Shown here: piece by piece, positions 6,901 through 40,881 of the stretch
Layout: every line of letters begins with the position of its first letter
Numbering within the stretch: position 1 is the stretch's first letter
IMG/VR virus record: IMGVR_UViG_3300038393_001386
Location: 901 to 64,900 of that record
Source: a virus
Lineage: Duplodnaviria > Caudoviricetes
Reading direction: 5' to 3' (one strand)
DNA: 64,000 nt
Notes under the pieces: generated by a model
Told to the model about the DNA's origin: nothing
Seen by the model: the letters and a program-made list of their open reading frames with translations, nothing else
The model's database searches: none
Translations under genes and position numbers: made by a program

Positions 6901-9900
6901 CGCTTCCAGCCAGATATCGTCCACGGCACCGTCCGGCGGCGGCACCGGCACGGTGAGTCCGGTCGGGCAAAACGCAACCGACTGGGTGCTGACGTTCCAG
7001 GATGAGTTCGACGGCACCGCGATGGACTTCACGCGCTGGAATGATGGCATCTGGTTCCGCCGCGCTCCCGGCACCAAGGTCAATTACGCGGTGCAGAACG
7101 GTTCGCTGTTCATCTATCCGCTGCAGGACCAGGCGTCCGCCGACAAGATCGGCATGGACCCGGCCTCGAATGGCTATTACGAGCGCGACTTCGCCACCGA
7201 TGGCAAGTTTTCGCAGACGTATGGCTACTTCGAGGCGGAAATCAAGATGCCGACCGGGCGCGGCCTGTTTCCCGCCTTCTGGCTGTTCAACCATGACACC
7301 GATCCGCTCGACACCGAGATCGATATCATGGAAGCCTATCCGGGCGGCTATGACAACAACCAGGCGGCATTCAACTGGGCCAGTTCGCAACTGCACGCGA
7401 TCGATTACATCTTCACGGTGTGGAACGATACCGGCGACGACCGCGCCGGCTACATGAGGATGGCGGGCGGCACCAACAGCCGCTTCCCGACCAAGGACTT
7501 ATCGACTACCTACAACGTATTTGGCGTGAAGTGGGATTCGTCCGGCATCACGCCGTACTTCAACGGCCAGGCGCTCGGCGTATATAACGAGTCGGCCAAC
7601 GTGTATGCCGATACGCTGGTGTCGCCGTCGCTGAACACCAATAACTTCGCGTCGCGCCCGATGTACTTCGTGCTGAGCCTGTGGCTCGGGCGCGCGGTTG
7701 GCAATGAATCGCCGTGGCCGAACACGTCGGAAACGCCGCAAGGCATCGGCAATCCGATGGAAGTGCGCTATGTGCGCGCCTGGCGCTTCCAGGCCGGTTC
7801 CGGCGGCGGCTCGCAAAGCGGGCCGGCAATGGCGAACCAGTACCATACCGGCCTGCACTCGCACCGCTCTTGGGGCGGCGGTTCGCCCAACCCGTCCTTC
7901 AAGTTCGGCTTGTTCCGCGACTGGGATTGCGACGGCACCGCCGACATGTATATCTGGAAATCCGATAACACGATCGACTTTTCGCGCGTCGATACGGTGT
8001 ACCAGGCAGTCGTCAACCAGGGTGGCAAGGTGATCAAGAACTTCGGCTCGGTGCCGACCTGGGCGGCGCGCGTGAAAACGGTCTCCGATGTCAACGACTT
8101 TTCGCTGCAGGGCAGCTCGCGCTATGGCGTGGTCGGGTCGATGTCGGGGCCGGCGGACCTGGATGCGTATGAGGATTACTGCTTCCGCTTCATCACGCAC
8201 ACGAAAAACTGGCTGTTCGCGGTCGAAGGCTGGAACGAGCCATTCGATACCGATGACCAGTCGCCGTATGAATACTTCACCGGCACCAAGACGCAACTGG
8301 CCGATATCCAGCAGCGGCTGTACCGCGCCGCCAAGCGCGTCGATCCGAACCTGCCGGTGTTCTCACCGCCGAATGCCTGGGAAACCGGCATTCGCGACGT
8401 GATCCTGACCGCGCACTGCTCGGATGGCACGCCAATGTACAACTACTATGACGTGCTCGGCTGCCATCCGTATGACTACAGCGCGGCAGGCGAGGGCGGC
8501 ATGCAATTGCTGTCGGACCTGGTGAACAACATGCGGAGCTGGATGAACGACGCCGGCACCAACAAGCCGATCGCCGACACCGAGCATGGCTTTTTCCACG
8601 ATTTGCATCCTGGCGGTTCCTATTTCTGCGACAGCAGCCAGGATGTGAAGGCGCAAATCCTGTATGACCTGAACCAGAAAGCCAAGCAGCTTGGTCTGGT
8701 CACGATCTGCTTTTACAGCTTTGATGACGGGCTGGTCGAAGGCAACGCCGATTTCTCGCCTGGCACGCCGTGCGCGACCAAGATGCAGCAGGCGTATGAC
8801 GACTTCGACACCAAGAGTTACCCATGGCCAGTGGTGTCGTCTTCCGCGCCGCCCCCGACCGGCGGCAGCGGGGGCGGCGGCAGCACGACCGGCCCCGGCG
8901 ACATGCCGTATGGCCGTCCCGCGTCCGAATTCGGCAAGATGACGTTCCGCGATGAATTCGACCTGTCCACGCTGAATGCGAATGCTTGGACCACGCACAT
9001 CTGGTATCAGGGCGAGCAGGGCGTGCCGTATGACATCGCCAATTCGTGCCTGCGCATCTATCCCGATTCCTCGTTCGTGGACCGGCACATCACGACCGAT
9101 TCCAAGTTCGAGCAAAAGTACGGGTACTGGGAATGGAAGGCAAAGCTGCCGATCGGCAAAGGCGTGTGGCCGGCGCTCTGGCTGTATTACCACAACGACA
9201 GCGCAGCGGCTCCGGTGCGCCGCGAAGTCGATGTGATGGAAGCCTATCCGGGCGGCGGGCCGAATTCCGGCTGGTCCGATTCCAGCCTGCACCCGACCAA
9301 CTTCGCGGCCACGCTGCACGAGGCGAATGCCGATTACAGCTCGGATGTGGTGCCGTTCACCGAAAAGCTGTCCGATTCCGGGCTGGCCACCACCGACCTG
9401 TCGGCGCAGTTCCACTATTACGGCGTGAAGATCACGCAAAGCCGCGTCGAATTTTATTTCGATGGCCAACTGCTGGGCGGCTGGGACAACGATGGCGTGT
9501 TCACGGTATTCCAGTACATCATCATGAGCCTGCAGTTCGGCTCCGCGTCCGGCACGCCGGATGGCACCACGCCGCTGGGCACCAGCAATGCGTTCCAGAT
9601 CGATTATGTGCGGGTATGGGCGCTGGCCGATGGCAGCACGCAAGTCAATACGCAATTGCCTGCGCCAGACAATGGCTCTGGCTCGACCACCACGCGCACC
9701 GCGACCCTGTCGAAGACGCTGCGGGCGATGACGCTGTCCTCGGCTGGCACGTCCGGCTCGGCGGGCGGTGCGGCGCGCATCGGCAACCTGTCGATCACGC
9801 TCGGCCCGCTGACGCTCGACGCCGGCAGCCAGGTGCCGCAAGCAAGGAATGCGGTCTTGAACAAGACGCTGCGCGATATGACGCTCGCGTCCACGGCAAC

Positions 9901-9973
9901 CAATGCTGCTGGCGGCGGCGGCGGTGGCGGCGGTGGTGCCGGCAGCGATGACGATGCCTTCCTCATTTTCTGA
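3935..9973 (+). CDS. 2012-aa multidomain carbohydrate-active virion protein (beta-sandwich, pectate-lyase-like beta-helix, SGNH-like, GH16, clan GH-A TIM barrel, second GH16)
   Basis: YVATNGSDSNAGT..APFLTI beta-helix start; GH16 motifs EIDIME (~7316) and EVDVME (~9225); WNEP (~8232) and DTEHG (~8576) of clan GH-A; Ser/Gly/Pro linkers. Confidence 0.8.
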   Translation: MAFVSQGQWANSQNKTAGTTLVFNANATAPVGSFIVLVIAKDNAATANGQTSEVTGISSNTGNTWTKAQEYTQAQGSAGAGATCAVWFCNVTTQIANGASFTINFAQSITAKTCSAWLYTMDSNMVGAVASTAVLGNAGADPGSMAISGLASANYLFVRGIALEYSSFDMIETSGFTPFGTDCTSGGTTDTNMSVAGEWKIATATGATSDPTLSAVDNASVFVAFKMNSTGGSTPPPSSSTKILSIAPPTPGSGQYIQALVKSARSFSGDIHYQGRIVTARQTRTSGGDFYEVASPIWHLNAFQSYNTINIFTNGWELNRFSSGNATQLAKGDGSYPIGQWVDFDITQTGNNIVVKLNGFTVADINDPNAYTAGAVGMIVQDAEGQLDNIAYPFADDFESYAEQSLADKATIGNWTIDYLNGGSAAIKTVSTSGTSSTPNASVMDIYGSDFVWGTTSGSAGGRTAPTTANHLYVATNGSDSNAGTQAAPFLTIGKAASVAQPNTTIHIADGTYAITNLSTTCSGTSSGYIYFWATNKWGPKLVPTGTGVSGIAWNVGGNYNWVDGIEIDGQSKANWDIGFWIDGSNVVIKYAHTHHIGMANGCTANGGGGICASGFSGQGFQDVLNCVSHHIGPGAIGSCAAFHGYYMQGHDWTLKNCIAHNCTGNGINSHHDSIRGKIINNTIFRTGRGIICSADQFYNITQGGSYTIENNIVYDNNPDGSNYTGGIGIAGTTDSNSVINNNYVGGNQGQAILITSAQGTASNNITTGLPGFVSYAIDGTGNYHLAAGSQCIDFGLPDYVNSDDLDGATRIVGAKPDLGVYEYGAAAPSGQPANPTWPATFDADLTAYTVRNEGVQNNDTTKALNGSDGVHPAWSQQMSKTTAGIIGLMFGYEEAKAGTSATTFKNNLQQMINGAKSYGKTVILFTEHKVNINTSAYNQAIVDLGSSNSLQVIDIFTWSNSHFTGALTDWLPDGVYPKQTTYNDIGHYASSQISSTAPSGGGTGTVSPVGQNATDWVLTFQDEFDGTAMDFTRWNDGIWFRRAPGTKVNYAVQNGSLFIYPLQDQASADKIGMDPASNGYYERDFATDGKFSQTYGYFEAEIKMPTGRGLFPAFWLFNHDTDPLDTEIDIMEAYPGGYDNNQAAFNWASSQLHAIDYIFTVWNDTGDDRAGYMRMAGGTNSRFPTKDLSTTYNVFGVKWDSSGITPYFNGQALGVYNESANVYADTLVSPSLNTNNFASRPMYFVLSLWLGRAVGNESPWPNTSETPQGIGNPMEVRYVRAWRFQAGSGGGSQSGPAMANQYHTGLHSHRSWGGGSPNPSFKFGLFRDWDCDGTADMYIWKSDNTIDFSRVDTVYQAVVNQGGKVIKNFGSVPTWAARVKTVSDVNDFSLQGSSRYGVVGSMSGPADLDAYEDYCFRFITHTKNWLFAVEGWNEPFDTDDQSPYEYFTGTKTQLADIQQRLYRAAKRVDPNLPVFSPPNAWETGIRDVILTAHCSDGTPMYNYYDVLGCHPYDYSAAGEGGMQLLSDLVNNMRSWMNDAGTNKPIADTEHGFFHDLHPGGSYFCDSSQDVKAQILYDLNQKAKQLGLVTICFYSFDDGLVEGNADFSPGTPCATKMQQAYDDFDTKSYPWPVVSSSAPPPTGGSGGGGSTTGPGDMPYGRPASEFGKMTFRDEFDLSTLNANAWTTHIWYQGEQGVPYDIANSCLRIYPDSSFVDRHITTDSKFEQKYGYWEWKAKLPIGKGVWPALWLYYHNDSAAAPVRREVDVMEAYPGGGPNSGWSDSSLHPTNFAATLHEANADYSSDVVPFTEKLSDSGLATTDLSAQFHYYGVKITQSRVEFYFDGQLLGGWDNDGVFTVFQYIIMSLQFGSASGTPDGTTPLGTSNAFQIDYVRVWALADGSTQVNTQLPAPDNGSGSTTTRTATLSKTLRAMTLSSAGTSGSAGGAARIGNLSITLGPLTLDAGSQVPQARNAVLNKTLRDMTLASTATNAAGGGGGGGGGAGSDDDAFLIF

Positions 9974-11408: not shown

Positions 11409-11721
11409 GTTGTTCCTGCTGTGGCTGGTGGCGTGCGCGGTCGCGTTGCTGTTGAGCTGGTTGCCGGAAGCGCTCGGCGCAACGCGCAGCTATGCGGCCA
11501 AGTCAGCCTTCGCCAAACGGCAAGCCTGCCCAGCCACGGCGAAGAACACGGTGTCTTGTAAAGGCTTCGTGATCGACCATGTCAAGGCGCTGGACTGCGG
11601 CGGCGCTGATAGCCCGGACAACATGCAATGGCTCACGATCGAGGCGGGAAAGGCAAAGGACAAGACAGAACGTAATGGTCCGGAGTGCCAGCATCGGACG
11701 ACAGGGAAACAGTCTGAGTAG
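11365..11721 (+). CDS. HNH endonuclease with N-terminal hydrophobic/signal segment
   Basis: CPAT...C.GFVIDHVKALDCGGADSPDNMQWLT motif; TM-like LFLLWLVACAVALLL; true start may be 11377 or 11380. Confidence 0.7.
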   Translation: MRNWMMRLSTPTWIKLFLLWLVACAVALLLSWLPEALGATRSYAAKSAFAKRQACPATAKNTVSCKGFVIDHVKALDCGGADSPDNMQWLTIEAGKAKDKTERNGPECQHRTTGKQSE

Positions 11722-11938
11722 CTTTTCCTACTGGTTCGCCGTTGATATAGAGTGTACAACCACCAAAAGTCCATAAGATGCCGTAGAAAGTCCAGTCGCC
11801 CGTCACTACGCCATCGTCCACCAGGATGCCTTGCGGTGGCACGATCAGTGTCTTGACAGGCATCAGCATGCCTGACTTGATATAAACGGGCGCGGCGGCA
11901 GCGGCCAGCATCGCACCAAGGAAGCCTCGACGATTCAT
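11633..11938 (-). CDS. Small protein with twin-arginine (Tat-like) signal peptide
   Basis: MNRRGFLGAMLAAAAAP. Confidence 0.55.
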   Translation of the reverse strand: MNRRGFLGAMLAAAAAPVYIKSGMLMPVKTLIVPPQGILVDDGVVTGDWTFYGILWTFGGCTLYINGEPVGKATQTVSLSSDAGTPDHYVLSCPLPFPPRS

Positions 11939-12150: not shown

Positions 12151-12458
12151 AGTTCGCTATTCTCCTTTTGGTAAGCCTCGGCAATGTCTCGCATCGCCTG
12201 CTGGAATATCTTCGATTCCGGACCCCAAAAGTGCATGGCGTTATAGGCGCGTGCCGCCATTTCCTTCCAGTCCGCCGACCGGCTCGCCATCGGCCCGTCG
12301 CGCCGCTGCCAGCGGGCGATCAAGCTGTCGGTGCTGCCGTTCATGTCAAACGTGACCTGGCAGTCGGCGCAGCGGATCGTGGTGCGCTGATGCCAGTTGT
12401 CGTGCTCGGTTTTGACATTGCCGCCGCAGAACGGGCAGGGCAGTAAGTCAATCACCAT
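12147..12458 (-). CDS. Lar-like (restriction alleviation) zinc-finger protein
   Basis: LLPCPFCGG...CADC motif. Confidence 0.65.
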   Translation of the reverse strand: MVIDLLPCPFCGGNVKTEHDNWHQRTTIRCADCQVTFDMNGSTDSLIARWQRRDGPMASRSADWKEMAARAYNAMHFWGPESKIFQQAMRDIAEAYQKENSEL

Positions 12459-12783
12459 GGTCAGTCTCCTTGTGATCGGATACGGTATCTGATGCTGGCG
12501 GCGGACCTGCATATAAATACGCTTCATCAATCACGCGGCCAACGTTGGTTACTTCCATGTCAACCGGACCCCATGCCGTCGCGCTTATCACTCCCTTCCG
12601 TCCGCGCTTAGGTTGGTACGTGACCATTTTCCCGACTGGATGATTCGATCCGAGCAAATTGCGCAATGCCGCAATAACCAGTTTTGTCGCCTTGAGCATT
12701 TCTGGCGGATCGCCGAAATATTGCATGTGCGTGGTAAAGCCTTGTGCCTGTAATGCGGCGACGATTTGTTCGTCTGTAATCAT
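12448..12783 (-). CDS. Hypothetical protein
   Basis: 111 aa; contains two GA-N7-TC-like sites (NHPV, DTVS). Confidence 0.55.
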   Translation of the reverse strand: MITDEQIVAALQAQGFTTHMQYFGDPPEMLKATKLVIAALRNLLGSNHPVGKMVTYQPKRGRKGVISATAWGPVDMEVTNVGRVIDEAYLYAGPPPASDTVSDHKETDHGD

Positions 12784-12960
12784 TTATTCACCTTTCACAT
12801 TTGAGGAGCTATCTATCGCAAGATCGCGGATGCGGGTAATGATTACATGCGCCTCATCCACCAGCGAGACATTTGGATCTGCAAGAACCTCGTCGCAGAT
12901 CTGTATCACTTCCTCTAGTGTCTCCAGGCGCGCATGCTGCCGGACCTCTTTTTCATTCAT
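12784..12960 (-). CDS. Hypothetical protein
   Basis: MNEKEV...; ends IDSSSNVKGE at a GA-N7-TC site. Confidence 0.5.
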   Translation of the reverse strand: MNEKEVRQHARLETLEEVIQICDEVLADPNVSLVDEAHVIITRIRDLAIDSSSNVKGE

Positions 12961-13055
12961 CGCACAATCCCCTAAAAAGTATTTGCATTGCACGGATTCC
13001 GTGTTATGATGTCTTCATCGGTTGAACGAAACCGACAACCAACAAGGGGAAGACA

Positions 13056-13445
13056 ATGAATAGCAACACGGTCGCCAAAGAGATTTATGCCGATGACAAC
13101 AAGGTCATCATGATCCTCATGGATCAACGGGCGGTTGACCTCGCTGATGCCTTCGTCAGGAACTTGCGCAATACACTGACCGCAGAACAGTGGGATCAGA
13201 TGAAAGAGCTCAATGCTCAATATGGCGAAGGCAGGGTATGCGCCAGCTATGAGTTCTGCGATGCCAACTTGGCGATGGCTCTTGCATTCAAGGCGCTGCG
13301 CATCCCTCTCTGGCGAGACGCTGACGAAAACGGCGATCCGACCGAAAAAACCCTGCGCAATCCAGAAACTGCCATGCTGCACGAAGCGAACGCGCTCTGG
13401 AATTCCGCCTGGGAATACGCCCGCAAAACCAAAATGACCGCCTGA
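13056..13445 (+). CDS. Hypothetical protein (counter-oriented cassette)
   Basis: 129 aa, AGGGAAG RBS; opposite strand to all neighbours. Confidence 0.6.
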   Translation: MNSNTVAKEIYADDNKVIMILMDQRAVDLADAFVRNLRNTLTAEQWDQMKELNAQYGEGRVCASYEFCDANLAMALAFKALRIPLWRDADENGDPTEKTLRNPETAMLHEANALWNSAWEYARKTKMTA

Positions 13446-13446
13446 C

Positions 13447-13632
13447 ATGACGCATCCGACTCCAGAACAGATCCGCAAGGCCCGCGATGCTGTGGGCCTG
13501 TCGCAGACTACTGCCGCCGAGCTAATCCACTCCACCATGCGAACCTGGCAGGATTGGGAGGCCGGCAAAGCCAAGATGCATCCGGGTTTGTGGGAATTAT
13601 TCGCCATTAAGTCGAAGTCCCTTCGCCGTTAG
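13447..13632 (+). CDS. XRE-family helix-turn-helix protein
   Basis: PEQIRKARDAVGLSQTTAAELI...WQDWEAG. Confidence 0.8.
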   Translation: MTHPTPEQIRKARDAVGLSQTTAAELIHSTMRTWQDWEAGKAKMHPGLWELFAIKSKSLRR

Positions 13633-13912
13633 CATGGGATGTGGCATCAAGCGCAGCCACCAACTGTTTAAACGCCTGCTCGGTGTGATAGCGGCCCTTG
13701 ACCTTCACCAGATTGTGAACCGCCTTCATCACGGCATTAATGCGATCCGTGCGATATGTGCTGTAATCCGCGTCCATGCCAGTGTCGTACTCATAGTCCG
13801 GGTCCGAGACGATGGAATCGATAATCTGCAATTCCAGGCTCAGCCGGGCCTTCTGGCTGATTAACGCTTGCAGCTCTGGATGCCGCCAATCAATGTCCTG
13901 CTTCTTATCCAT
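13607..13912 (-). CDS. Hypothetical protein (array A module)
   Basis: MDKKQDIDW...LDATSHANG; ends at the TGCCACA site. Confidence 0.6.
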   Translation of the reverse strand: MDKKQDIDWRHPELQALISQKARLSLELQIIDSIVSDPDYEYDTGMDADYSTYRTDRINAVMKAVHNLVKVKGRYHTEQAFKQLVAALDATSHANGEGTST

Positions 13913-14171
13913 TGCTCTCTCCATCTGATGGGACATCTGTTGTTTGCTCAAGCGAAAACAGGTAGCGCAACCAGCTCTGTGCGCCGCCTTTGGTCAGATG
14001 ATCCCGATCATGTGAATCAGCAACCCATTCGGGCCAGTAACCATCGAAGCCTGACATTTCCAGATGCCGACACATATCCTTGAGTGTGATGCTGCTGGTT
14101 GCGCCATACAGTTGCAGGAAAGTTCGGACTGCGCGGTTCTCGCCATCATCGTCCAGCAGTTTTCTAGTCAT
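13905..14171 (-). CDS. Hypothetical protein (array A module)
   Basis: MTRKLLDDDG...TDVPSDGESNG; CAGGAG RBS. Confidence 0.6.
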   Translation of the reverse strand: MTRKLLDDDGENRAVRTFLQLYGATSSITLKDMCRHLEMSGFDGYWPEWVADSHDRDHLTKGGAQSWLRYLFSLEQTTDVPSDGESNG

Positions 14172-14203
14172 TTGATTTTTCTCCTGTTGCTTCCGATAGT
14201 GCC

Positions 14204-14371
14204 TCAAACGTCAATTAGCGCCGACACTTCGACGACGGCATCTGGATACTTCTCGCGCAATGATTCGGCATATTCGCAAGCCTCATCAAAATCGTTGAAT
14301 TCCTTGGTGTGACAGGCCGAGCAAAAAACGGAGTAGCAGACCACAAGCAAGGTTGACCATTGTGATTTCAT
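14204..14371 (-). CDS. Small hypothetical protein (array A module)
   Basis: Hand translation MKSQWSTLL...VSALIDV (55 aa); stop lies in the GGCACTA site. Confidence 0.45.
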   Translation of the reverse strand: MKSQWSTLLVVCYSVFCSACHTKEFNDFDEACEYAESLREKYPDAVVEVSALIDV

Positions 14372-14586
14372 TCCTGTTCTCCCTTTGATGATCCATCTGT
14401 CGCAAGGCGTTTAATGCGGTCTTCGCATCTAGAGCATCCGCAATGTTTTCTAGCTTCTTCTAGGGCGGCAGCGCGGGAGGCTTGCCATGCTCTCCAAGCA
14501 TCGGCGGTTCCGGTGTCTGCATATTCGCCATCAACCATATCCAGCGGCGATCCCCACCAGCCCTCGAATTGCTCCCGTATAGTCAT
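14368..14586 (-). CDS. Hypothetical protein (array A module)
   Basis: RAAALEEA motif; ends ATDGSSKGEQE. Confidence 0.6.
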   Translation of the reverse strand: MTIREQFEGWWGSPLDMVDGEYADTGTADAWRAWQASRAAALEEARKHCGCSRCEDRIKRLATDGSSKGEQE

Positions 14587-15215
14587 TTCGGCTCCGATGA
14601 ATTAGAGGGGTGATCAAGCGGGTCATTGATACCTGGACCACAGCAGGGAACAAAGTGCATCATTCCAGCCGTGCGATGACATGGACAGGCGCAGTCGTTA
14701 TATGCCGGATTGCATCCTTCCCGGTTTGGCGCAATCAAGTTGCCGGTATCAGATGAACGATCCAGCGCAGCAGTGACGGCAACCCGGGCATATTCGCGCA
14801 TTTGGTCGGCAGTAAAAACGTCATTCCTTCGGCTTGCGTGGAATGGTAATTGGGCAAACGGGCCGGTTCTGTTCTCATTCCAGTAGCCATCATCGAAAAT
14901 GGTTCCGACCGGCGCGGGCAACTCGGCAGATGCAGGAGATGGGCGATCCGATGCAAGACCGCGCAAGTGCTGAATGCAGGAGCGGATTTCATCCAATCCA
15001 CCCGGCCACGCATCGAAAAATTCTTTGAGAATCCGTGCAGCGCCATCGGCCGTCATCGAATACTTGCCGCCATGCTCACTTTCCCATTCGACATCGGCGT
15101 GTGCTGCTGTAAGCCGCTCGATCTCTCCAATCAACTTGAGGACACCGGAAGCCTTGAGCACGAAATCATCGGGCTGGACCTCGCACATCTCCTTCATTTT
15201 TGCCAAATCAATCAT
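14583..15215 (-). CDS. Three-module mosaic protein (array A)
   Basis: Modules joined in frame by SDRPS, LDRSS and LDHPS. Confidence 0.65.
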   Translation of the reverse strand: MIDLAKMKEMCEVQPDDFVLKASGVLKLIGEIERLTAAHADVEWESEHGGKYSMTADGAARILKEFFDAWPGGLDEIRSCIQHLRGLASDRPSPASAELPAPVGTIFDDGYWNENRTGPFAQLPFHASRRNDVFTADQMREYARVAVTAALDRSSDTGNLIAPNREGCNPAYNDCACPCHRTAGMMHFVPCCGPGINDPLDHPSNSSEPK

Positions 15216-15351
15216 TGTTTTCCTCTCCTGCGTTAGCTGGTCTATCCGTTCGGCGCTCCGCTCGCCAATGCTTGAATTTGGCCACTGGCAGCAACAGCAC
15301 ATAGCTCACCAGATAAAACACCAATCCGATAACGTCTTTGATGGTCCTCAT
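15208..15351 (-). CDS. Small membrane protein (array A module)
   Basis: Hand translation MRTIKDVIGLVFYLVSYVLLLPV...TDRPA (47 aa); GGAGGA RBS. Confidence 0.45.
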   Translation of the reverse strand: MRTIKDVIGLVFYLVSYVLLLPVAKFKHWRAERRTDRPANAGEENND

Positions 15352-15369
15352 GTATCCTCCGATGGTCGA

Positions 15370-15567
15370 TTACATGCGCGGCCTCAGCAGCATCGCCTTG
15401 ACATGGCTGTATCCCGCGCGGCGGCACGCTTCGTAATCTTCGGGCTGCAGGTAAAACACCCGCTGCGTCAGCGGCGTGCCGATCCGGTTGTAATAGTCAT
15501 CCTGCTGCATCACCTGCTTGCCGTAAGTTGCCCACATCCGATGCGCCACTTGGATATCGCGTGTCAT
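15370..15567 (-). CDS. Hypothetical protein
   Basis: MTRDIQVAH...; GGAGA RBS. Confidence 0.5.
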   Translation of the reverse strand: MTRDIQVAHRMWATYGKQVMQQDDYYNRIGTPLTQRVFYLQPEDYEACRRAGYSHVKAMLLRPRM

Positions 15568-15824
15568 ACGGTCTCCTTTCTGCCTTCGCGCAGCGCGATC
15601 AGCTCGCGCCGGAAATCCCGGTTGCGCAGCGCACAATTCACCATCATCAGCCGCAAGTCATCGATCCGGCTCTGCCGGTCGCGCAGCAATTCCTCCAGCA
15701 TCGCGATCCGCGCCGCCCGCGCTTTCAACTCGTCCTGCTGGCGCAGGAATTCCGCCTGGTACTGCTGCGCCTGCCGCTCCAGTTCCTCTATCCGGCGCTC
15801 CAGCGTGGAACGGTGGATCGTCAT
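15564..15824 (-). CDS. Coiled-coil hypothetical protein
   Basis: LERRIEELERQ heptad pattern. Confidence 0.55.
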   Translation of the reverse strand: MTIHRSTLERRIEELERQAQQYQAEFLRQQDELKARAARIAMLEELLRDRQSRIDDLRLMMVNCALRNRDFRRELIALREGRKETV

Positions 15825-16411
15825 GCCAGCAACTCCAGACAACGCGCTCGCAGCGCCTCCGTTTCCGCTATGGTCGGCATATAGGTGTGCGGCTGCAGGA
15901 AATAATCGTCCAGATCGACCGGCAGATATAAATTCGAGGTATCGTGCGTGTCCGCGCACTGGAACAGTCCCAGCAGGATCGGCGCATCGCCCATGCAACG
16001 CAGCGTGTGGATTTCCTGGTCCGTCACTTCATACGCCTGTTCGCTCGGCGTGAGCCGTTCCTGCTTGCCAGCCAGCGCCACCCGTCCCGCCGGCTCGCGG
16101 TGCCGCGTTTCGGCGCGATACAAGTATTGCTGCCAGTCGCCATGCGCCGACTCATCTGCCCGGAACCGCCAATGCTCCAGGCTGCCGTGCAACACGAAGG
16201 TGGAAAAGCCATAGCGGTGCGAATGCGGATGGACCAGAAAGCCGCTGTTCGGGTTGATCGGCTTGTCGATCAGGTACATCTTGACGGTCAGCTCGAAGCT
16301 GCGATGCAGGCACAGGTAATGCATGCCATCGACATGGTAGTTCATCGAGGAATGGGGGCGCATCTGCTTCGGATCGAGTTGATGGAGCAATGCCTTGAAG
16401 ACAGTGCGCAT
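15821..16411 (-). CDS. Cupin-like protein
   Basis: VHPHSHRYGFSTFVLHGSLEH and EIHTL His-rich cupin pattern. Confidence 0.55.
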   Translation of the reverse strand: MRTVFKALLHQLDPKQMRPHSSMNYHVDGMHYLCLHRSFELTVKMYLIDKPINPNSGFLVHPHSHRYGFSTFVLHGSLEHWRFRADESAHGDWQQYLYRAETRHREPAGRVALAGKQERLTPSEQAYEVTDQEIHTLRCMGDAPILLGLFQCADTHDTSNLYLPVDLDDYFLQPHTYMPTIAETEALRARCLELLA

Positions 16412-16420
16412 GGCGTTCTC

Positions 16421-16609
16421 CTAATGGTAGAGGCGGTGGGCCTCGATGCAATGGCGCAGCACCATGTAGCGGAAGGGCAGCGGCAGTTCGTCCCATGCCG
16501 ATGGCTCTTGCGCGAGCATGCGCATGACCATCAAGGCCACACGGGAGCGTTCTTCACACAGCGCTTGCTGGCGCGGCGTGCGCTGCGGCAACAAGGCGAG
16601 CGCGCTCAT
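16421..16609 (-). CDS. Hypothetical protein
   Basis: Coupled ORF in the early operon. Confidence 0.45.
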   Translation of the reverse strand: MSALALLPQRTPRQQALCEERSRVALMVMRMLAQEPSAWDELPLPFRYMVLRHCIEAHRLYH

Positions 16610-16830
16610 GATGGCACCCGCAAGTCTGCGCCTTGCAGCGGCAAGCCGTGTTTCGTCAGCGCATGGGTGGCCAGCTTGAAGCCATCGCGCAGCGCGGATT
16701 CGTTGTCCTTGCCCAGCAAGTGGTAATAGACGGCAGTGCGCAGCGTTTGCAGCGCACGCACCAAATCCTCGTGGCAATCCATGCAGGTGCAGGCATGGCG
16801 AATCATGTCTTCATCCAAGTCAATATTCAT
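16606..16830 (-). CDS. Hypothetical protein
   Basis: MNIDLDEDM...; GGGAG RBS. Confidence 0.5.
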   Translation of the reverse strand: MNIDLDEDMIRHACTCMDCHEDLVRALQTLRTAVYYHLLGKDNESALRDGFKLATHALTKHGLPLQGADLRVPS

Positions 16831-16877
16831 TGATCGTCTCCCGATCCGGTAATGATACTGCATTCGTGGACGTTAAA

Positions 16878-16892
16878 CTACCAAAATGGTTG
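16878..16892. promoter_or_regulatory. CTACC-N5-GGTAG-type operator (variant)
   Basis: CTACC AAAAT GGTTG in an AT-rich intergenic gap. Confidence 0.55.
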
Positions 16893-16915
16893 CATAAAAG
16901 GGGAGCAAAAAAGGG

Positions 16916-17158
16916 TCAAAATGGCACATGCAGCACCGCCGGACTCTGCTTGCGCTGCCGCTTCTCTTGCGCCAGTTCCGCTTGCAAATGGCGCTGCCCT
17001 TCCGCCGTCCACAACAGGTCACGCAGCAGTTTTTGCGCGTGATACAGCGACGTGCGCCATTCCGCCTTGGCGGATTCTGGCGTGGCCGGGTTGTGCAACT
17101 GCTGGCGGCAATGATCAATGTGTCGCCGCGCCAAGGCGATTTTCAGCGCCATGCTCAT
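16916..17158 (-). CDS. Hypothetical protein
   Basis: 80 aa ORF, GGAGAG RBS. Confidence 0.5.
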   Translation of the reverse strand: MSMALKIALARRHIDHCRQQLHNPATPESAKAEWRTSLYHAQKLLRDLLWTAEGQRHLQAELAQEKRQRKQSPAVLHVPF

Positions 17159-17257
17159 GTCACTCTCCTTGCTAGGTGACGCCGGCGCACTTGCCGAGCA
17201 TCGAAATGATCCAAAGGATCGCTATCCCTGCCAATATGCCTCTTGCCAATGGTCCGA

Positions 17258-17476
17258 TCATGCTGGTTCTCCTTTCTTGACGCGCTTGGCTTCGTCGGTG
17301 ACCCGCTGATATACGCCATACATGGCGTCGGTCGCTTGCTGGAGCACCCGCTGGCGCAGCGCCAGATACTGCTGGTAGCGCAGCCCTTCGCGCTGTGCGC
17401 ACTCGCGGATTTCCGTGTCCAATTCCATCAGACGGTGCCGCATGCTGGTCAGCGTGAGTTTCGGTTCGCCGCTCAT
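17258..17476 (-). CDS. Hypothetical coiled-coil protein
   Basis: 72 aa ORF, AGGAG RBS. Confidence 0.5.
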   Translation of the reverse strand: MSGEPKLTLTSMRHRLMELDTEIRECAQREGLRYQQYLALRQRVLQQATDAMYGVYQRVTDEAKRVKKGEPA

Positions 17477-17485
17477 GTCATGCTC

Positions 17486-17815
17486 CTAGTCGATCCTGCT
17501 GCCGCATTCTTGCGCCACGGCTTGCAGGTTATGCTTCAATGCCAGGAACTGCTGCTTGGCCTGGTGCAGTTCGGCGTACGCGATGCGGATCGCTGCGTCG
17601 CACGCCTCATGCTCAGTCGCAAAGGCCTCGCTCCAGGAGTAGTAATAGGAGCGTGTCGATTTCTCCGGCACGCCGTAAAAGCCCCAACTGTGGCCCAGGC
17701 TGGTTTTCTCAATCTTGGTCAGATGCACCTTCAGCGGCAATTCGCCGTGCCGGGTCCGCTTGCGTCCCACGATCCACAAGACTGTCGGCATCGTGCCTTC
17801 GTAGTGGTATGCCAT
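17486..17815 (-). CDS. Hypothetical protein
   Basis: 109 aa; GGAGACCATCATG start motif. Confidence 0.55.
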   Translation of the reverse strand: MAYHYEGTMPTVLWIVGRKRTRHGELPLKVHLTKIEKTSLGHSWGFYGVPEKSTRSYYYSWSEAFATEHEACDAAIRIAYAELHQAKQQFLALKHNLQAVAQECGSRID

Positions 17816-17828
17816 GATGGTCTCCTAG

Positions 17829-18029
17829 TTACGCTTCCGTGACACTGAAATCATCGTCGGCATTGATGCCGAACCGCTCGAACGGCTCATCATCGGCCAC
17901 GCCGTAATTCGACAGCGCCGCCTCGCGCGCATAGGGTTCGGTCGTTTCTGTGACGACGCCAAGCCACAACGGACGATTCTCGCGCGTCACATACACATCC
18001 CACACTTTCAGATTCGCCAGCGATTTCAT
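17829..18029 (-). CDS. Hypothetical protein
   Basis: 66 aa; GGAGAACATCATG start motif. Confidence 0.55.
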   Translation of the reverse strand: MKSLANLKVWDVYVTRENRPLWLGVVTETTEPYAREAALSNYGVADDEPFERFGINADDDFSVTEA

Positions 18030-18068
18030 GATGTTCTCCTATGGCGGGCTTGCGCCCGCCGGGTGGTG

Positions 18069-18932
18069 TCAGGCTGTTTCCAGTTCCGGCAACCGCTCGC
18101 CGCGCTTCAATGCCGCCATGCCTTCGGCCAGCCGGGACAGCGCCTTGTTCAGCCGCACGTTTTCATTGACGCCGCCGACTTCGCGGGTGGTCGTTCGCTT
18201 GCCAGTGCTGGTGCGCCCCGGCAGTCCGCCGCGCACGATGTTTTCCTGCACGCGGTTAAAGGTCGTCCACAAGTCGTTGTTCTGATCCTGCGGACGGCGG
18301 ACGGTCAGCAAGCGGTCGGCATCTACTGGAGCCTTGCCGCCTTCCCACCGCAGTTCCTGCGCGGCGTTGGCTAGCAAGAGTTGTTCGGGCCGATCGAGCC
18401 GGATCGCCTTGTAATCGTCAATCGTTTCTTCGACTTGCTTGAGGTTATCGATCACGCGGAACGAGCCTTCGATCACGTCATCGACCACGTTGCCGGTGTG
18501 CCGGACTTTGACGTGCTCGCCGATTTCGCCCATGATCAAGCCGTTCTTGCAGATGTAGCGGAACACGCCTTCCATGATCTGGTATGAGCTGGTGCCGTCG
18601 TGGCTGTTGACCAGCACGATTTCTCCGGTTTCCTGACTGGAATGCAGCTTCGCATCCGGGTGCCGCAGGCGCAGCAAGTGCTTGGTGAAATCGCGCTTGC
18701 CTTCATCGCGGCACTTGGTTTGCCGGACCTCGAACACCTGGAAGCCTTCGCGGCGCAGGCCGGCGAGCACGTCCGAAGTCGGGATAAAGGCATAGCGTTG
18801 GCCGCGTGAGTCATGCGCGTGATCGGCAAAGATCGATGGCGCGTAACGGGCGATCGTGTCATCGTCCAGCGGGGTGGCCGATTGAAAAACGGTTTGATTC
18901 TTTTGTGCTCCATAGCGTACAAAGTTCAACAT
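18069..18932 (-). CDS. DUF932/DUF945-family protein
   Basis: IPTSDVLAGLRREGF, FTKHLLRLR, EIVLVNSHDGTSSYQ, NDLWTTFNRVQEN motifs. Confidence 0.85.
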   Translation of the reverse strand: MLNFVRYGAQKNQTVFQSATPLDDDTIARYAPSIFADHAHDSRGQRYAFIPTSDVLAGLRREGFQVFEVRQTKCRDEGKRDFTKHLLRLRHPDAKLHSSQETGEIVLVNSHDGTSSYQIMEGVFRYICKNGLIMGEIGEHVKVRHTGNVVDDVIEGSFRVIDNLKQVEETIDDYKAIRLDRPEQLLLANAAQELRWEGGKAPVDADRLLTVRRPQDQNNDLWTTFNRVQENIVRGGLPGRTSTGKRTTTREVGGVNENVRLNKALSRLAEGMAALKRGERLPELETA

Positions 18933-18971
18933 GATGGTTCTCCAAGGTTGTGGTCTAGTTCGGTCTGTCTG

Positions 18972-19012
18972 CTACCGTATTGGTAGTATATGATACCGTA
19001 TTAGGATGTCAA
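18972..19012 (-). promoter_or_regulatory. Leftward sigma70 promoter with overlapping operator
   Basis: Minus-strand TTGACA-16nt-TATACT; CTACC GTATT GGTAG at 18972-18986. Confidence 0.8.
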
Positions 19013-19041
19013 GGTAAAAAATGGTCGCAAATGTGAAAAAG

Positions 19042-19452
19042 TTAAGGCGTCTGCCGGGGCGTCCAATACACCAGCACGGGCGCTGCCGGGTCAGAGCACA
19101 AGCCACGATCATGCATCTTGCCATCGATCACGGTCACGATATGGTTGGGCAGCATTACCATATAGCGGCCTGTGCGATGCGTCGCCAGAAACTCGATCAG
19201 CATCATCGGCACAGGCGGGAAATGGTGCTCGCCAAAGTGATGGGCGACGGCGCTCATGCTGAGCGGATCGATCCCTTCCCTGTCTTGTCGGCCTGCATTG
19301 CGCAGGATGTGATGCGCGGTGCCATACGGCAGATCGGCGAAGACCGCCAAGGCGCGCACGCTGCAATCATTGTCTTCATGGGTATAGCCATCGAGATTGC
19401 GACCGCCATCCGTACTAGTGAGCAACATCGATTCCAACGCTTGCCGGTTCAT
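19042..19452 (-). CDS. Hypothetical protein
   Basis: NDCSVRALA...HIVTVIDG pattern; AGGAAAGGA RBS. Confidence 0.6.
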   Translation of the reverse strand: MNRQALESMLLTSTDGGRNLDGYTHEDNDCSVRALAVFADLPYGTAHHILRNAGRQDREGIDPLSMSAVAHHFGEHHFPPVPMMLIEFLATHRTGRYMVMLPNHIVTVIDGKMHDRGLCSDPAAPVLVYWTPRQTP

Positions 19453-19489
19453 GGTTCCTGTCCTTTCCTGACTAAACGACCATGAAGAC

Positions 19490-19517
19490 AGTATAGCTAC
19501 CAAATTGGTAGTATCAA
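19490..19517 (-). promoter_or_regulatory. Leftward promoter with operator between -35 and -10
   Basis: Minus-strand TTGATA-16nt-TATACT; CTACC AAATT GGTAG at 19497-19511. Confidence 0.8.
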
Positions 19518-19742
19518 GAGCCGAAGTGCGATTTCTCCAGACTTTTACAATGTATGCAACTTTCCAACAGTGTTGGCAATTTTCCAGCAGTTCCAGCGGA
19601 GCCGCTGGTGGGGAATTTTTTGCCCAAGAGCGCGCAAACGGGGCGCGATGCGCGACTGATTCAGGCGCAGTGCGACCGTTGGCCCCTTTTGGAATCAAGC
19701 ACTTGCGACGAAGTGCGACCTGTGTTTATCCTGCGCATGATT

Positions 19743-19801
19743 CTCGAAATCCAGTGTACGGTTATACCGTACCGAGGGTTCAAATCCCTCCCTTTCCGCC
19801 A
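19743..19801 (+). other. attP core: 3' part of tRNA-Ser(CGA)
   Basis: CTCGAAA anticodon loop, TCCAG stem half, long variable arm GTACGG-TTATA-CCGTAC, T-arm GAGGG-TTCAAAT-CCCTC, ends CCGCCA; no 5' half of the tRNA upstream. Confidence 0.8.
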
Positions 19802-19819
19802 CCAGACTCAGTTTCCTTG

Positions 19820-19849
19820 AAAGCGCCCACTAACCTCTGGGCGCTTTTT
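19820..19849. terminator. Bidirectional intrinsic terminator beside attP
   Basis: AAAGCGCCCA-8nt-TGGGCGCTTTTT. Confidence 0.8.
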
Positions 19850-20255
19850 CATTGGGGTGGTGGGGAATATTTTGACCATCGCCGTCTGCGTCCGATGTGG
19901 CATCCGATGCCAGGCAATGCAGAAACATTGCCTTCGCTTCGTCGGCTGTGAACAGGTTGGTGCCGATAGGCCAGCTCGGCGCGTATCCCCTCGCATCCGG
20001 TTCATGCTTGAACGAGATGCCGCAGTCGGGCGCGAAAGTCTTGGGCAGCGGCCAGCAAAGGAAACGGTTCACCATCGCATCGACATCAGTAGATGGACGA
20101 TTCGCCGGGTCGTCGTTGACGCCGGCTTGATGCCAGTGCAGTTCTTGCTTTCCGCAATTCGCGCACTCCGTCTTGCCAGAGCGCAGTAGGTTGAAGTGGA
20201 CGGAGCCACACTCGCAGGTATAGGCCATGTGATCGTGAAGGTTTTCGATGGTCAT
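19830..20255 (-). CDS. Two-module hypothetical protein (array B)
   Basis: Zn-finger-like N-module, NRPS junction, ends SDATS. Confidence 0.6.
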   Translation of the reverse strand: MTIENLHDHMAYTCECGSVHFNLLRSGKTECANCGKQELHWHQAGVNDDPANRPSTDVDAMVNRFLCWPLPKTFAPDCGISFKHEPDARGYAPSWPIGTNLFTADEAKAMFLHCLASDATSDADGDGQNIPHHPNEKAPRG

Positions 20256-20259
20256 TTTT

Positions 20260-20424
20260 TCATTGCTCTGATGGGTGATTTAGCGCGGCCAGCATTTCCC
20301 GCATTCCGTACAGCACATGCATGGTTTGCTGGTAATTCGCTTGCATCGCTCTTTCTCTTGGGTCAAGCTGCAACCGTCGCAACTGCTCGGCTTCGTACAG
20401 GTCAAGGAATTTAGCTGCGTCCAT
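20260..20424 (-). CDS. Small hypothetical protein (array B)
   Basis: MDAAKFL...LNHPSEQ. Confidence 0.5.
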   Translation of the reverse strand: MDAAKFLDLYEAEQLRRLQLDPRERAMQANYQQTMHVLYGMREMLAALNHPSEQ

Positions 20425-20590
20425 TGTTTTCCCCCTTTGCGTCTGATGGGACATCTGTTGCGACTTCTAGCATTGCTGCAAGTCCAAGCATTTCATCTAC
20501 GATAGGGAAACGTAGTTCCTTGTCTCCTGTCAGGATGTCCACAGCTTCGCGCAGGATGTTCGCTATATCTCGTAAGTCTTTGTTATTCAT
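20411..20590 (-). CDS. Small hypothetical protein (array B)
   Basis: Hand translation MNNKDLRD...ATDVPSDAKGENNGRS. Confidence 0.5.
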   Translation of the reverse strand: MNNKDLRDIANILREAVDILTGDKELRFPIVDEMLGLAAMLEVATDVPSDAKGENNGRS

Positions 20591-20751
20591 TCGTTTGCCT
20601 CCGATAGTGCCTCAAGCGCGGATTCAAGAATCTTGTGAATTCCCTCCCAATATCGGAGGTATTCATCTTCACCGTTGGCATATCGCGGAATAAGTCCAAC
20701 CTCAACTGCCTTCTTCATTGCCGCCGACACCATTTCTTCGGTTATTTGCAT
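20587..20751 (-). CDS. Small hypothetical protein (array B)
   Basis: Hand translation MQITEEMVSAAM...LEALSEANE. Confidence 0.5.
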   Translation of the reverse strand: MQITEEMVSAAMKKAVEVGLIPRYANGEDEYLRYWEGIHKILESALEALSEANE

Positions 20752-20975
20752 TTCGGCTCTCCCGAATCGGATGATCCATCTGTCGCAAGTGCGCGGATCT
20801 TGGCTGCTGCTCCGCAGTCGCCGTCATAACCCCACTGAATAGCATCGACCGCCTGCGCCGCTTCTTCCAGGGCGGCAGCGCGAATCGCCTGGGCGAACAG
20901 AAATGTTGCCTGGTTACCGAAGCCAACTTCATCGATGAACTTGTTGTGCAGGTCCGCTGCTTCTTTTTCTGTCAT
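20742..20975 (-). CDS. Hypothetical protein (array B)
   Basis: RAAALEEAA motif; ends ATDGSSDSGEPKCK. Confidence 0.6.
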   Translation of the reverse strand: MTEKEAADLHNKFIDEVGFGNQATFLFAQAIRAAALEEAAQAVDAIQWGYDGDCGAAAKIRALATDGSSDSGEPKCK

Positions 20976-21457
20976 TTCGGCTCCTTCGTATTAGAGGGGT
21001 GATCCGATGTGAGCAGATGCGCCACATCCTCAAATTTCACCCATTCGCCGTTTTCCTTGATTTCGATTATCGGAACAATCGGTTCATTGCGGCTTTCAGC
21101 GGTCACATAGAAGTTGTACCTTTTGATCGCAACAGATGAACGATCTGGTTTTTCGCCACTGTATAGCTCTGCATAAACCTCATCGGCAATTCGCTGCTGC
21201 TCTGCCTCTGTTTGGCATAGCGGGAACCGGCATAACGAATCAGATGGGCGATCCGATGCGGCCTTCAGTTCGCGCAATTCCCTTTCTGCTTTCATGGCGC
21301 GGTTTGCCCATTCATGGCGGCTTAGCACGGTGCAAGGAATGCATTCTTTTTGCACTCCGACTTTAATGAAATAATCAGGCTTTCCGGCTCCCGGATGCGG
21401 ATTGTCGGAAAGCGGCAAACCGCATTTATGGCAGCATCCTGGCTTCAATTCAGGCAT
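20972..21457 (-). CDS. Three-module mosaic protein (array B)
   Basis: Modules joined by SDRPS, PDRSS and SDHPS. Confidence 0.65.
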   Translation of the reverse strand: MPELKPGCCHKCGLPLSDNPHPGAGKPDYFIKVGVQKECIPCTVLSRHEWANRAMKAERELRELKAASDRPSDSLCRFPLCQTEAEQQRIADEVYAELYSGEKPDRSSVAIKRYNFYVTAESRNEPIVPIIEIKENGEWVKFEDVAHLLTSDHPSNTKEPK

Positions 21458-21483
21458 TCTTTTCTCCTTCTGCATGGGATGGT

Positions 21484-21711
21484 CTATCCGTTCGGCAGCC
21501 ACAGATCATACGGATCGCCGGTGTCCTGTGGTGTTTCCTGCTGGATCGCACGCTTGAGCCAATCCGGCACCGACTTTTTCGCTGCTTCATCATCCGAATA
21601 GGTGCCGACCTTCTTGCCATCGATCCACACTTCGACCATGCCATTCGCCAGCCGGGTCCGACGCACCATGTGGACTTCCGCAACCCGGCCATTGACATCC
21701 AGTATCTTCAT
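21484..21711 (-). CDS. Hypothetical protein
   Basis: 75 aa; its stop TAG lies inside the TAGACCA site. Confidence 0.55.
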   Translation of the reverse strand: MKILDVNGRVAEVHMVRRTRLANGMVEVWIDGKKVGTYSDDEAAKKSVPDWLKRAIQQETPQDTGDPYDLWLPNG

Positions 21712-24059: not shown

Positions 24060-24287
24060 TTATTCCCCATCCGGCACCATGCCGCACCATCCGCGCCCGG
24101 ATGGGACGCGCACGGGATCGGCCTTTAACATGACCTTTTCGCCTTCATTCGTTTGATAAACGATCTTGCGATCAATCCATTCAGTTTTCATTTCCTGTTG
24201 CCATGCCATACAAGCCGACCCTTGGCACTCGCGCTGCGTAGTGCAGCAGACATAAAGTTTCGCTTCAGCCTCATCAATCATTTTCAT
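24060..24287 (-). CDS. Hypothetical protein
   Basis: CQGSACMAW...GWCG motif common in small phage proteins. Confidence 0.6.
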   Translation of the reverse strand: MKMIDEAEAKLYVCCTTQRECQGSACMAWQQEMKTEWIDRKIVYQTNEGEKVMLKADPVRVPSGRGWCGMVPDGE

Positions 24288-25243
24288 TTGATCTTCCTCA
24301 CCGCCGCCGCCTTGGTCTGCAGCAGCAGATGCGCATAGCGCTGCGTGCTCCGTAAATCCTTGTGGCCCAATACCTGACCGATCGCATACAGGTCCACGCC
24401 TTCATTGGCCATCGCCGATGCCGTGCTGTGCCGCAGGTCGTGAAAGTGCAGGTGCGGATAGCCTGCCGCCTGTCTGGCCCGTTCCCATAGCCGCTGCATC
24501 CAGCGCTTCTTGTAGGGCAGCGGAAAATACTTTTGCAGCACCCACACCTTGGAATGCAAGGCCACGGTGCGCGCTTCGCCATTCTTGGTCTTGCGCAGAA
24601 ACACCGTGCCAGCCTGCCAGTCCGACGTGTGGCCGATGCTCATCATTTCGCCGATCCGCATGCCGGTGTAAAAGCCGAGCCGGATCAAGGCGCGGATTTC
24701 TCGGTTCTCGGCAGCCTTCGCGATGTCCAGCATCTGCTTTCTGGTGGCGTACACTTGCCGCTCATTCTTCACCGCCGGCATGGCGACCTTCAGCGCCAAG
24801 CCTTGGCCCTTGCCGTGGAATTCCTGCGCATAGCGGCAAGCCGCGCGCAGGTAGGACAGCTTGTTCTTGATCGATGCCGGCGACAACTGGCCGCGCATGT
24901 CCGCCGCGTAGTTCCTTGCCACGTCGCCCAGTTCATCCAGGTAGCGGCCCTTGTAAGCCCAGTGGATATGCGCCAGCTCGGCGCGCACGCCGGCGAAGTT
25001 CTTCAAGTCCGCCGCATGGTGTTCCAGGTACAGTTGCACGGCATCCTCGATCAAGTCGCGTGGTTGCTTGGCACCAGTTGCAATGGCGTACAGTTCCTTT
25101 TCCTGCCGGTGCGCGTAGGCTTGGGCTTGGGTTCGAGTCCAGCCTTGCGGAAGTAGTTTTCGAGTGCGGATTCGCTGGCCGGCGATATGCTTGTCGAACT
25201 CAAAGCACCAGCGACCCTTCTTTGCGTTGAAGTATGTCGGCAT
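24284..25243 (-). CDS. int: Tyrosine integrase
   Basis: Catalytic set: YTGMRIGE (R), LRKTKNG (K), HFHDLRH, LGHKDLRSTQRYAH. Confidence 0.95.
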   Translation of the reverse strand: MPTYFNAKKGRWCFEFDKHIAGQRIRTRKLLPQGWTRTQAQAYAHRQEKELYAIATGAKQPRDLIEDAVQLYLEHHAADLKNFAGVRAELAHIHWAYKGRYLDELGDVARNYAADMRGQLSPASIKNKLSYLRAACRYAQEFHGKGQGLALKVAMPAVKNERQVYATRKQMLDIAKAAENREIRALIRLGFYTGMRIGEMMSIGHTSDWQAGTVFLRKTKNGEARTVALHSKVWVLQKYFPLPYKKRWMQRLWERARQAAGYPHLHFHDLRHSTASAMANEGVDLYAIGQVLGHKDLRSTQRYAHLLLQTKAAAVRKIK

Positions 25244-40794: not shown

Positions 40795-40800
40795 CAGAAT

Positions 40801-40881
40801 GCGTGAGTAGCTCAAAAGGATAGAGCGCCGTCCTCAAATAGTCGAGACGGACATGCGGGTTCGAGTCCCGTCCACGCTCCA
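40801..40881 (+). tRNA. Atypical tRNA-like element (13-nt anticodon loop)
   Basis: GCGTG/CACGC acceptor, GCTC/GAGC D-stem, CCGTC/GACGG anticodon stem, GGGTTCGAGTCCC T-arm, terminal CCA; loop CTCAAATAGTCGA. Confidence 0.6.

Follow-up and report, generated by a model that had tools for sequence, protein, structure and literature searches.

It is an established idea in phage evolution that short conserved boundary sequences serve homologous exchange; the majority of mosaic joints have none (PMC3029335). The concept dates from Susskind and Botstein, with lambdoid examples from Clark et al. 2001 (refs 21-22 of PMC3029335). The modular theory of phage evolution has long proposed linkers for in-register exchange, and convincing examples are rare. 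We analysed a 64,000-nt stretch (the window) of the Caudoviricetes record IMGVR_UViG_3300038393_001386 (positions 901 to 64,900), which is nearly all of a 64.9-kb viral contig. Two arrays of early genes in this window, array A (12448..15351) and array B (19830..21711), share an ordered series of distinct 11-bp sequences, here called cores. We propose, with a probability of about one half, that these 11-mers are slot-specific short-homology boundary linkers for the in-register and in-frame exchange of gene cassettes and protein domains. Like the described boundary linkers, the cores are short conserved sequences at the boundaries of non-homologous modules and are common to different phages, and they lie in an accessory early region beside int/att; the described linkers, too, are proposed guides of homologous exchange. 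Unlike them, at least 10 different cores occur here in a fixed order, each exactly 11 bp long, invariant and in frame, two of them are domain seams within proteins, and two complete series are present in one genome. A complete ordered set of boundary sequences is unusual. The boundary-linker idea itself is known and the distinct, ordered cores are what is new. We see in this locus an exceptionally clean natural example of the linkers that have long been proposed, and not an integrase-site system.

Other cassette systems share some features with these arrays. Integrons have an IntI integrase, an attI site and folded attC sites of 57-141 nt at the cassette ends. As in integrons and in engineered lox/FRT exchange, where different spacers keep cassettes in register, promoterless cassettes lie between short sites. 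Unlike in integrons, the junction elements are coding tails of 11-36 nt, and there is no IntI-type or conserved recombinase; unlike in any of these systems, no binding arms are conserved, the linkers are translated and the cassettes are not tied to one slot. Polyvalent or mosaic multi-domain phage proteins such as the Ea22-like proteins were reportedly described by Iyer and co-workers in 2017. The arrays resemble them in that small independent domains are strung in variable combinations in early or anti-host proteins. We know of no conserved nucleotide-level seams described for the Ea22-like proteins. T4-type phages carry promoter-early stem-loop (PeSL) cassettes (Arbiol et al. 2010, PMC2839356). 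There, as here, short repeated elements stand beside small non-essential early genes, and PeSL recombination in hyperplastic regions shuffles genes. The PeSL element is an intergenic promoter plus terminator of one repeated kind, whereas the junctions here are coding and different in each slot; the sigma-70-type promoter and stem-loop terminator of PeSL were absent at the junctions, and no consistent hairpin was found there.

An earlier sequence-only reading had listed sixteen 11-mers, eight in each array. All of them are found where that reading placed them, and the A/B pairs are identical save for the GC end of the first site in A. The module spacings it gave were also correct, from 298 bp in A and 235 bp in B for the first slot to 289 and 551 bp for the last, and its description of the sites as real, individually distinct and ordered was borne out. 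In a dot plot with word size 10, the stretches 13.5-15.4 kb and 19.75-21.65 kb share 14 words, compared with a Markov-shuffle mean of 4.4; eight of the 14 are at least 13 nt long, and all eight are collinear on one diagonal series, which confirms the islands. Chains of isolated exact islands contained 6-9 members for array pairs and 0-1 in reversed-sequence controls. Every shared A/B island holds an 11-mer of the form GA-N7-TC. The minus-strand sequences of the cores are GATAGACCATC (J1), GATCGCCCATC (J2), GATCGTTCATC (J3), GATCACCCCTC (J4), GATGGATCATC (J5), GAGGTGCCGTC (J5b), GAGGCACTATC (J6), GATGTCCCATC (J7), GATGCCACATC (J8), GATAGCTCCTC (J9) and GATGCCGTAAC (J10). Elsewhere in the window the exact cores are absent, as are complementary or second copies. 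Since the cores occur nowhere else in the genome, the only possible partner of a core is the same core in another array.

The same cores are present on two other contigs. A search with the array A protein A4 returned 59 homologues, nearly all of which stop right after the conserved domain and have unrelated tails. One homologue with 70% identity bears the J9 tail in place of J7, and its contig (L014) carries array C, in which J2, J2, J3, J4, J5, J5b, J6, J7, J9 and J10 are exact and in order around different genes. A profile-free search with A1 returned a protein that matches only the first 40 residues of A1 and ends in the J7 tail. Its contig (L023) carries array D, with J1-J5, J5b, a one-mismatch J8, J6, J7, J9 and J10, again with different genes around them; apart from the J8-like core, all of these are exact and in order. 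The gene order on L023 is Erf, SSB, NinB, C5-methylase, array D and then Int. Outside the arrays, the window and L023 have in common only SSB, a distant NinB-like gene, an HNH gene and an oppositely oriented regulator. The core order is therefore conserved in other genomes while the slot contents vary, a positive outcome of a test that the sequence-only reading had proposed. J9 and a variant of J10 also extend the series of array A past the coordinates recognised in that reading. In our reading, the linkers belong to a small group of temperate soil phages.

Both arrays of the window are rows of small genes that are translationally coupled and read from the minus strand; the gene calls are those of an identical contig of the Joint Genome Institute (JGI), L018, together with a list of open reading frames (ORFs). 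In array A, J1 (15236..15246, with G instead of T as its last-but-one base) reads T-D-R-P-A in a 47-amino-acid (aa) ORF (15208-15351). The multi-domain protein A1 (14583-15215) holds J2 (14938..14948, D-R-P-S, residues 90-93) and J3 (14752..14762, D-R-S-S, residues 152-155) at domain seams and J4 (14605..14615, D-H-P-S) in its C-terminal tail, 18 nt before the start of A2. J5 (14387..14397, D-G-S-S) is in the tail of A2 (14368-14586), J6 (14195..14205) overlaps the last two bases of the TGA stop codon of A3 (14204-14371) and is untranslated, J7 (13927..13937, D-V-P-S) is in the tail of A4 (13905-14171), and J8 (13638..13648, D-A-T-S) is in the tail of A5 (13607-13912). Two further genes of array A (12784-12960 and 12448-12783) lie beyond an inverted insert. 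J9 (12803..12813, D-S-S-S) is found in the window in array A only and is exact also in C and D, and a two-mismatch variant of J10 (12479..12489, D-T-V-S) lies in the tail of a 111-aa gene; J10 reads D-A-V-T in C and D.

In array B, J1 (21478..21488) holds the TAG stop codon of B0 (21484-21711, ending ..PNG*) and is mostly untranslated. J2 (21243..21253, D-R-P-S) and J3 (21135..21145, D-R-S-S) lie within the three-domain protein B1 (20972-21475), and J4 (20994..21004, D-H-P-S) is in its tail. J5 (20770..20780, D-G-S-S) is in the tail of B2 (20742-20975), J6 (20603..20613) is translated as E-A-L-S in the tail of B3 (20587-20751), J7 (20445..20455, D-V-P-S) is in the tail of B4 (20411-20590), and J8 (19894..19904, D-A-T-S) is within B6 (19830-20255). 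Around J7, array B and contig D are 94% identical over a block of 36 nt in which the next start codon is included. The tail of B5 (20260-20424), which ends ..LNHPSEQ*, contains at 20270-20280 (minus strand) a two-mismatch relative of J4, which stands at a junction without an exact core and resembles a linker that is decayed or paralogous.

The cores thus occur at gene 3' tails or at domain seams, and the seams were set independently by the ranges of homologues. J4-J8 stand 12-30 nt upstream of the next start codon, and J2 and J3 are inside A1 and B1. On the minus strand the first codon of a core is Asp or Glu and its last two bases open a Ser codon, so that the usual core peptide is D/E-x-[P/S/T]-S; those found are TDRP(S/A), SDRPS, DRSS, DHPS, TDGSS, EALS, TDVPS and DATS. 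The core peptide is usually followed by x2-5-G-E, which corresponds to the ribosome-binding site of the next gene, and then by a stop codon. Across junctions the tails follow the consensus A-[S/T]-D-x-[P/S]-S-D-A-x-G-E and are short and hydrophilic. Different linkers resemble each other and differ at 2-5 of the 11 core bases. As this peptide-like consensus is common to different junctions, the linkers look like diverged copies of one ancestral tail.

The conservation profile, for which pairwise identity was computed between copies of the same junction over 33 core copies, shows how sharply the cores are delimited. At ten core positions all copies agree (100%), at the remaining one identity is 96%, and it falls to 45% at -1 and 43% at +11 and to about 50% over the next ten bases. 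Similarity between genomes ends at the edges of the 11-mer. None of the interior synonymous positions (about three per core) varies in the 33 copies. By contrast, the Ser codon is free to vary at its third position, the tail codons beside the cores are about 50% identical, and cassettes common to arrays have only 73-75% DNA identity. J6 is part of the coding sequence in B and D, whereas in A and C it lies past the stop codon and is untranslated. J1 encodes T-D-R-P-A in A, contains the TAG of B0 in B and overlaps a TGA stop codon in D. Because J1 and J6 are conserved where they are untranslated or in another frame, the constraint acts on the DNA and not only on the peptide.

These data bear on the possibility that the motif D-x-[P/S]-S-D-A-x-G-E is selected as a peptide, for instance as a flexible linker or as a processing or docking site, and that the DNA identity reflects recent descent. 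Most cores are indeed in the same frame as D/E-x-[P/S/T]-S, different junctions reach a common peptide consensus from different bases, and the core edges coincide with codon positions. However, exactness of J1 and J6 outside that frame and the lack of synonymous variation in cores whose neighbouring tails and cassettes have diverged are difficult to reconcile with selection on a peptide, and most homologues of the same domains are without the motif. We therefore consider selection on the peptide quite unlikely as the cause of the conservation.

The slots between the cores have mostly unrelated contents. With a tblastx threshold of E<1e-3, the contents of the same slot were unrelated in every array comparison except J4-J5, which holds one family with the RAAALEEA motif in A, B and D and a DUF551 gene in C. 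BLASTP of A against B proteins recovered only the tails and one weak pair, A2/B2, which carries the RAAALEEA motif. No diffuse homology was seen between A and B by BLASTP, tblastx or blastn, beyond the tails and this pair, in agreement with the sequence-only reading, which had judged the modules unrelated apart from this motif. A slot may be occupied by one gene, by two genes or by one domain of a fused protein. A1 has domains at residues 2-41, 42-90, 97-152 and 160-200, and domain ends coincide with J2 (90-93), J3 (152-155) and J4 (201-204). All four domains are common in phage proteins that have none of these linkers, where they stand alone or in other fusions. Likewise, homologues of A4 are widespread without the linkers, and a B1 domain recurs without them in a Cupriavidus/Ralstonia prophage.

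A simple ancient tandem or segmental duplication of one array followed by ordinary divergence would explain why A and B agree in orientation and order and include one weakly related pair, A2/B2. It would not explain why six of the seven shared slots are without similarity and differ in length up to two-fold while the islands of 11-20 nt are still 100% identical, nor why the same islands occur in other phages around other genes. With no residual homology, and with arrays C and D, plain duplication is excluded as a sufficient explanation, and we regard it as a very improbable account of the arrays. It is a separate matter how one genome came to have two arrays; the second was probably acquired or duplicated as a block, and the two flank the presumed attP.

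We favour the boundary-linker reading because the cores are slot-distinct, identical between genomes, indifferent to frame and without a second copy elsewhere. Since the linkers differ at 2-5 of 11 core bases, a core finds a short stretch of exact homology only in its counterpart in another array. The linker tail ends one gene or domain and usually carries the ribosome-binding site of the next gene, so that recombination between the arrays of co-infecting phages or resident prophages could replace a gene or domain in register and in frame. The agents would probably be phage annealing and recombination functions (Erf, SSB and NinB in D; SSB, Gp157 and NinG in the window) or, alternatively, RecA-independent short-homology events. 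Spread of cassettes with intact cores would leave the cores identical and the flanks unrelated. Passive boundary sequences, which the sequence-only reading had named as the alternative to its own proposal, fit the data better than the integrase model that it preferred. The ordered series of cores turns the linker idea into a testable system, in which matched and mismatched cores, the minimal homology and the enzymes can be studied, and the same seams could explain how multi-domain early proteins are assembled.

Several points weigh against this interpretation. No exchange event was caught, contigs from four further runs showed only the same phage, and no near-identical cassette was found beside different neighbours in any pair of arrays. 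The ten window cassette proteins that were tested are all singletons at 90% identity. A length of 11 bp is short for known phage or host homologous recombination. The four arrays, which are all that are known, come from two data sources, C and D from one run series and the window phage from separate JGI samples, and C and D could belong to one phage population. In addition, two cassette families have changed slots with breakpoints near the start codon or within proteins and not at cores. Module 1a follows J1 in A and J6 in D, and its homology begins at the ATG and stops within the protein, where no core is present. Members of the A4 family occupy J6-J7 in A and J7-J9 in C. The cores are therefore not the only joints.

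The sequence-only reading had taken each core for a strict slot address. This part of the claim did not hold, as the address is not strict: besides the two families found in different slots, array C has J2 twice, around an extra cassette, and in array D a J8-like core precedes J6 by 7 nt. Both the duplicated J2 and the adjacent J8-like core and J6 are expected if similar linkers now and then recombine out of register. A stronger version of the boundary-linker idea is that the ordered, distinct 11-bp cores are a true address code, selected because they mobilise cassettes and domains between arrays in register and in frame, possibly with a dedicated short-homology annealing activity, and that this code reshuffles anti-host genes. 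We hold this stronger version to be doubtful, if conceivable. If it were true, nature would have a counterpart, based on homology, to cassette exchange at heterospecific sites or to ordered DNA assembly, and cores that proved to be selected mobility tags would define a new recombinase-independent gene-cassette system.

It is also necessary to consider whether the cores could be functional DNA or RNA elements of another kind, in a vertically inherited array whose genes were replaced piecemeal by illegitimate recombination. The sharp edges of identity and the conserved order would suit this explanation, and the breakpoints outside the cores show that illegitimate replacement does occur. On the other hand, ten or more different sequences would each require their own reader. 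RNA pairing is inconsistent, with a pairing probability of 0.56 in the cores and 0.51 in the flanks and with different partners each time. Promoter-like or terminator-like sites are absent at the junctions, the genome has no complementary or second copies elsewhere, and two cores lie within ORFs with no start codon after them. This explanation is therefore unlikely in our view. Such chains of islands were also not seen generally: in 210 pairs of other phage loci the chains had at most four members, except in one operator/terminator region, and no comparable lineage-specific core sets were found. Two loci neighbouring DUF932 genes, L008 (11.8-13.4 kb) and L011 (11.6-13.4 kb), have eight isolated exact islands in a chain. 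These islands are repeated TCAACACATTCAA-type motifs and a terminator hairpin, and represent a shared regulatory region, not coding linkers.

The sequence-only reading had proposed that a tyrosine recombinase exchanges cassettes at heterospecific overlaps, and we examined the phage tyrosine integrase (24284..25243, minus strand), or another site-specific recombinase, as a candidate enzyme acting at GA-N7-TC with the 7-bp cores as overlaps. Some observations are in line with this proposal. The cores are slot-distinct and yet identical between partners, as in engineered heterospecific lox/FRT sets, and the window and D both have an integrase. The consensus of all linkers (38 junction sites) is an imperfect 23-bp palindrome, GCATCG-GAT-N5-ATC-YGATGC, in which mirrored flank positions pair at 2.45 of 6 on average, compared with 1.48 +/- 0.16 after shuffling. 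However, pairing flanks across different sites gives 2.62, with no site-specific covariation, so that the palindrome belongs to the consensus only, and the arms of individual sites are weak. As identity just outside the 11-mer is only 43-45%, there are no conserved inverted binding arms at the junction sites, and the constant part is only GAK/MTC (K = G or T; M = A or C). The GA and TC edges are the first two bases of the Asp/Glu codon and of the Ser codon. Tyrosine-recombinase cores have an overlap of 6-8 bp and arms of 11-13 bp, which the geometry of the consensus palindrome, 9+5+9 with a 5-bp spacer, does not fit.

The integrases themselves argue in the same direction. Those of the window and of D are attP-type phage integrases whose similarity is confined to the catalytic domain, with 24% identity over 174 aa, although the cores of the two are identical, and the window and L023 have no other recombinase in common. 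The attP arms are unlike the junction flanks, and cassettes of one family sit in different slots. Contigs from four soil and rhizosphere runs, which hold the same phage at low depth, contained no A-B joints, circles or loose ends at the cores; only contigs were searched, and hence this is weak evidence. Taken together, these results count against the integrase at the cores, which we consider highly improbable. A Type IIS layout, with inverted GCATC sites around the core, was suggested by the palindromic consensus and was also examined and dropped, since the pentamer occurs in only about one sixth of the sites.

The integrase of the window does have a likely site of its own. We took as the attP core the 3' half of a class-II (Ser-like) tRNA at 19746..19798 (plus strand), the antisense of which gave a covariance-model match. 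This half is situated between arrays B and A and is 32 nt past the stop codon of B6. Sequencing depth at 19743-19801 in soil runs is 20-100x that of the surroundings, and the loose ends there bear the 5' half of the tRNA. If this tRNA half is attP, B would be located at one end of an integrated prophage and A close to its other end. Promoter-like sites on the minus strand follow attP at 19012-18985 (11/12 matches) and 19517-19490 (10/12), and a GC-rich hairpin with a T run overlaps the end of B6.

Further arrays were sought in phage genomes, metagenomes and sampled genomes. INPHARED phage genomes gave no match, either by megablast of a 9-kb region or by tblastn of A4. In IMG/VR, no exact match was found to a 20-mer of a junction island, and a 19-mer matched only two AT-rich chance sequences (L006, L007); the two-core pattern J4..J5 with a gap of 195-225 was also absent there. 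The same pattern in JGI metagenomes returned one contig (L017), which was rejected as an unrelated high-GC chance match. No cores were found around DUF932 homologues (L008-L013), around homologues of the C5-methylase of D (L025-L039), or in L016, L022 and L021, the last being the Cupriavidus/Ralstonia prophage with the B1-domain homologue. The J3..J4 pattern was absent from 401 sampled genomes of the taxonomic order of that Cupriavidus/Ralstonia genome. Look-ups for C and D cassettes recovered only the same arrays, and a protein search with the three-domain protein of C gave no match.

The window encodes a P22-type coat, terminase, portal, tyrosine integrase, SSB, NinG and DnaB-like helicase and occurs in soil and rhizosphere metagenomes. 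It comes from a temperate soil phage, in which the arrays are a fast-changing accessory early-gene region. The best outside matches are betaproteobacterial. The insert between J8 and J9 (13056..13632, plus strand) encodes a helix-turn-helix-type, repressor-like regulator and is homologous to a single 168-aa gene 3' of array D (L023:5282-5788, minus strand). In the window it consists of two ORFs of 129 and 61 aa in different frames, which could reflect a frameshift or a true division of the gene. At the end of the early operon (about 11633-11911, minus strand), the last gene encodes 92 aa in the window and L018 and 101 aa in three Logan contigs, a cassette-like difference between otherwise identical contigs of the window phage. 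ARAGORN found a tRNA-like gene at 40800-40880 (plus strand) to which it assigned no anticodon (four-base 'caaa' at position 36). A 2012-aa protein encoded at 3935-9973 (plus strand) has beta-helix, GDSL-lipase-like and GH16 domains and, judging from these domains, is probably a tail-associated glycan depolymerase.

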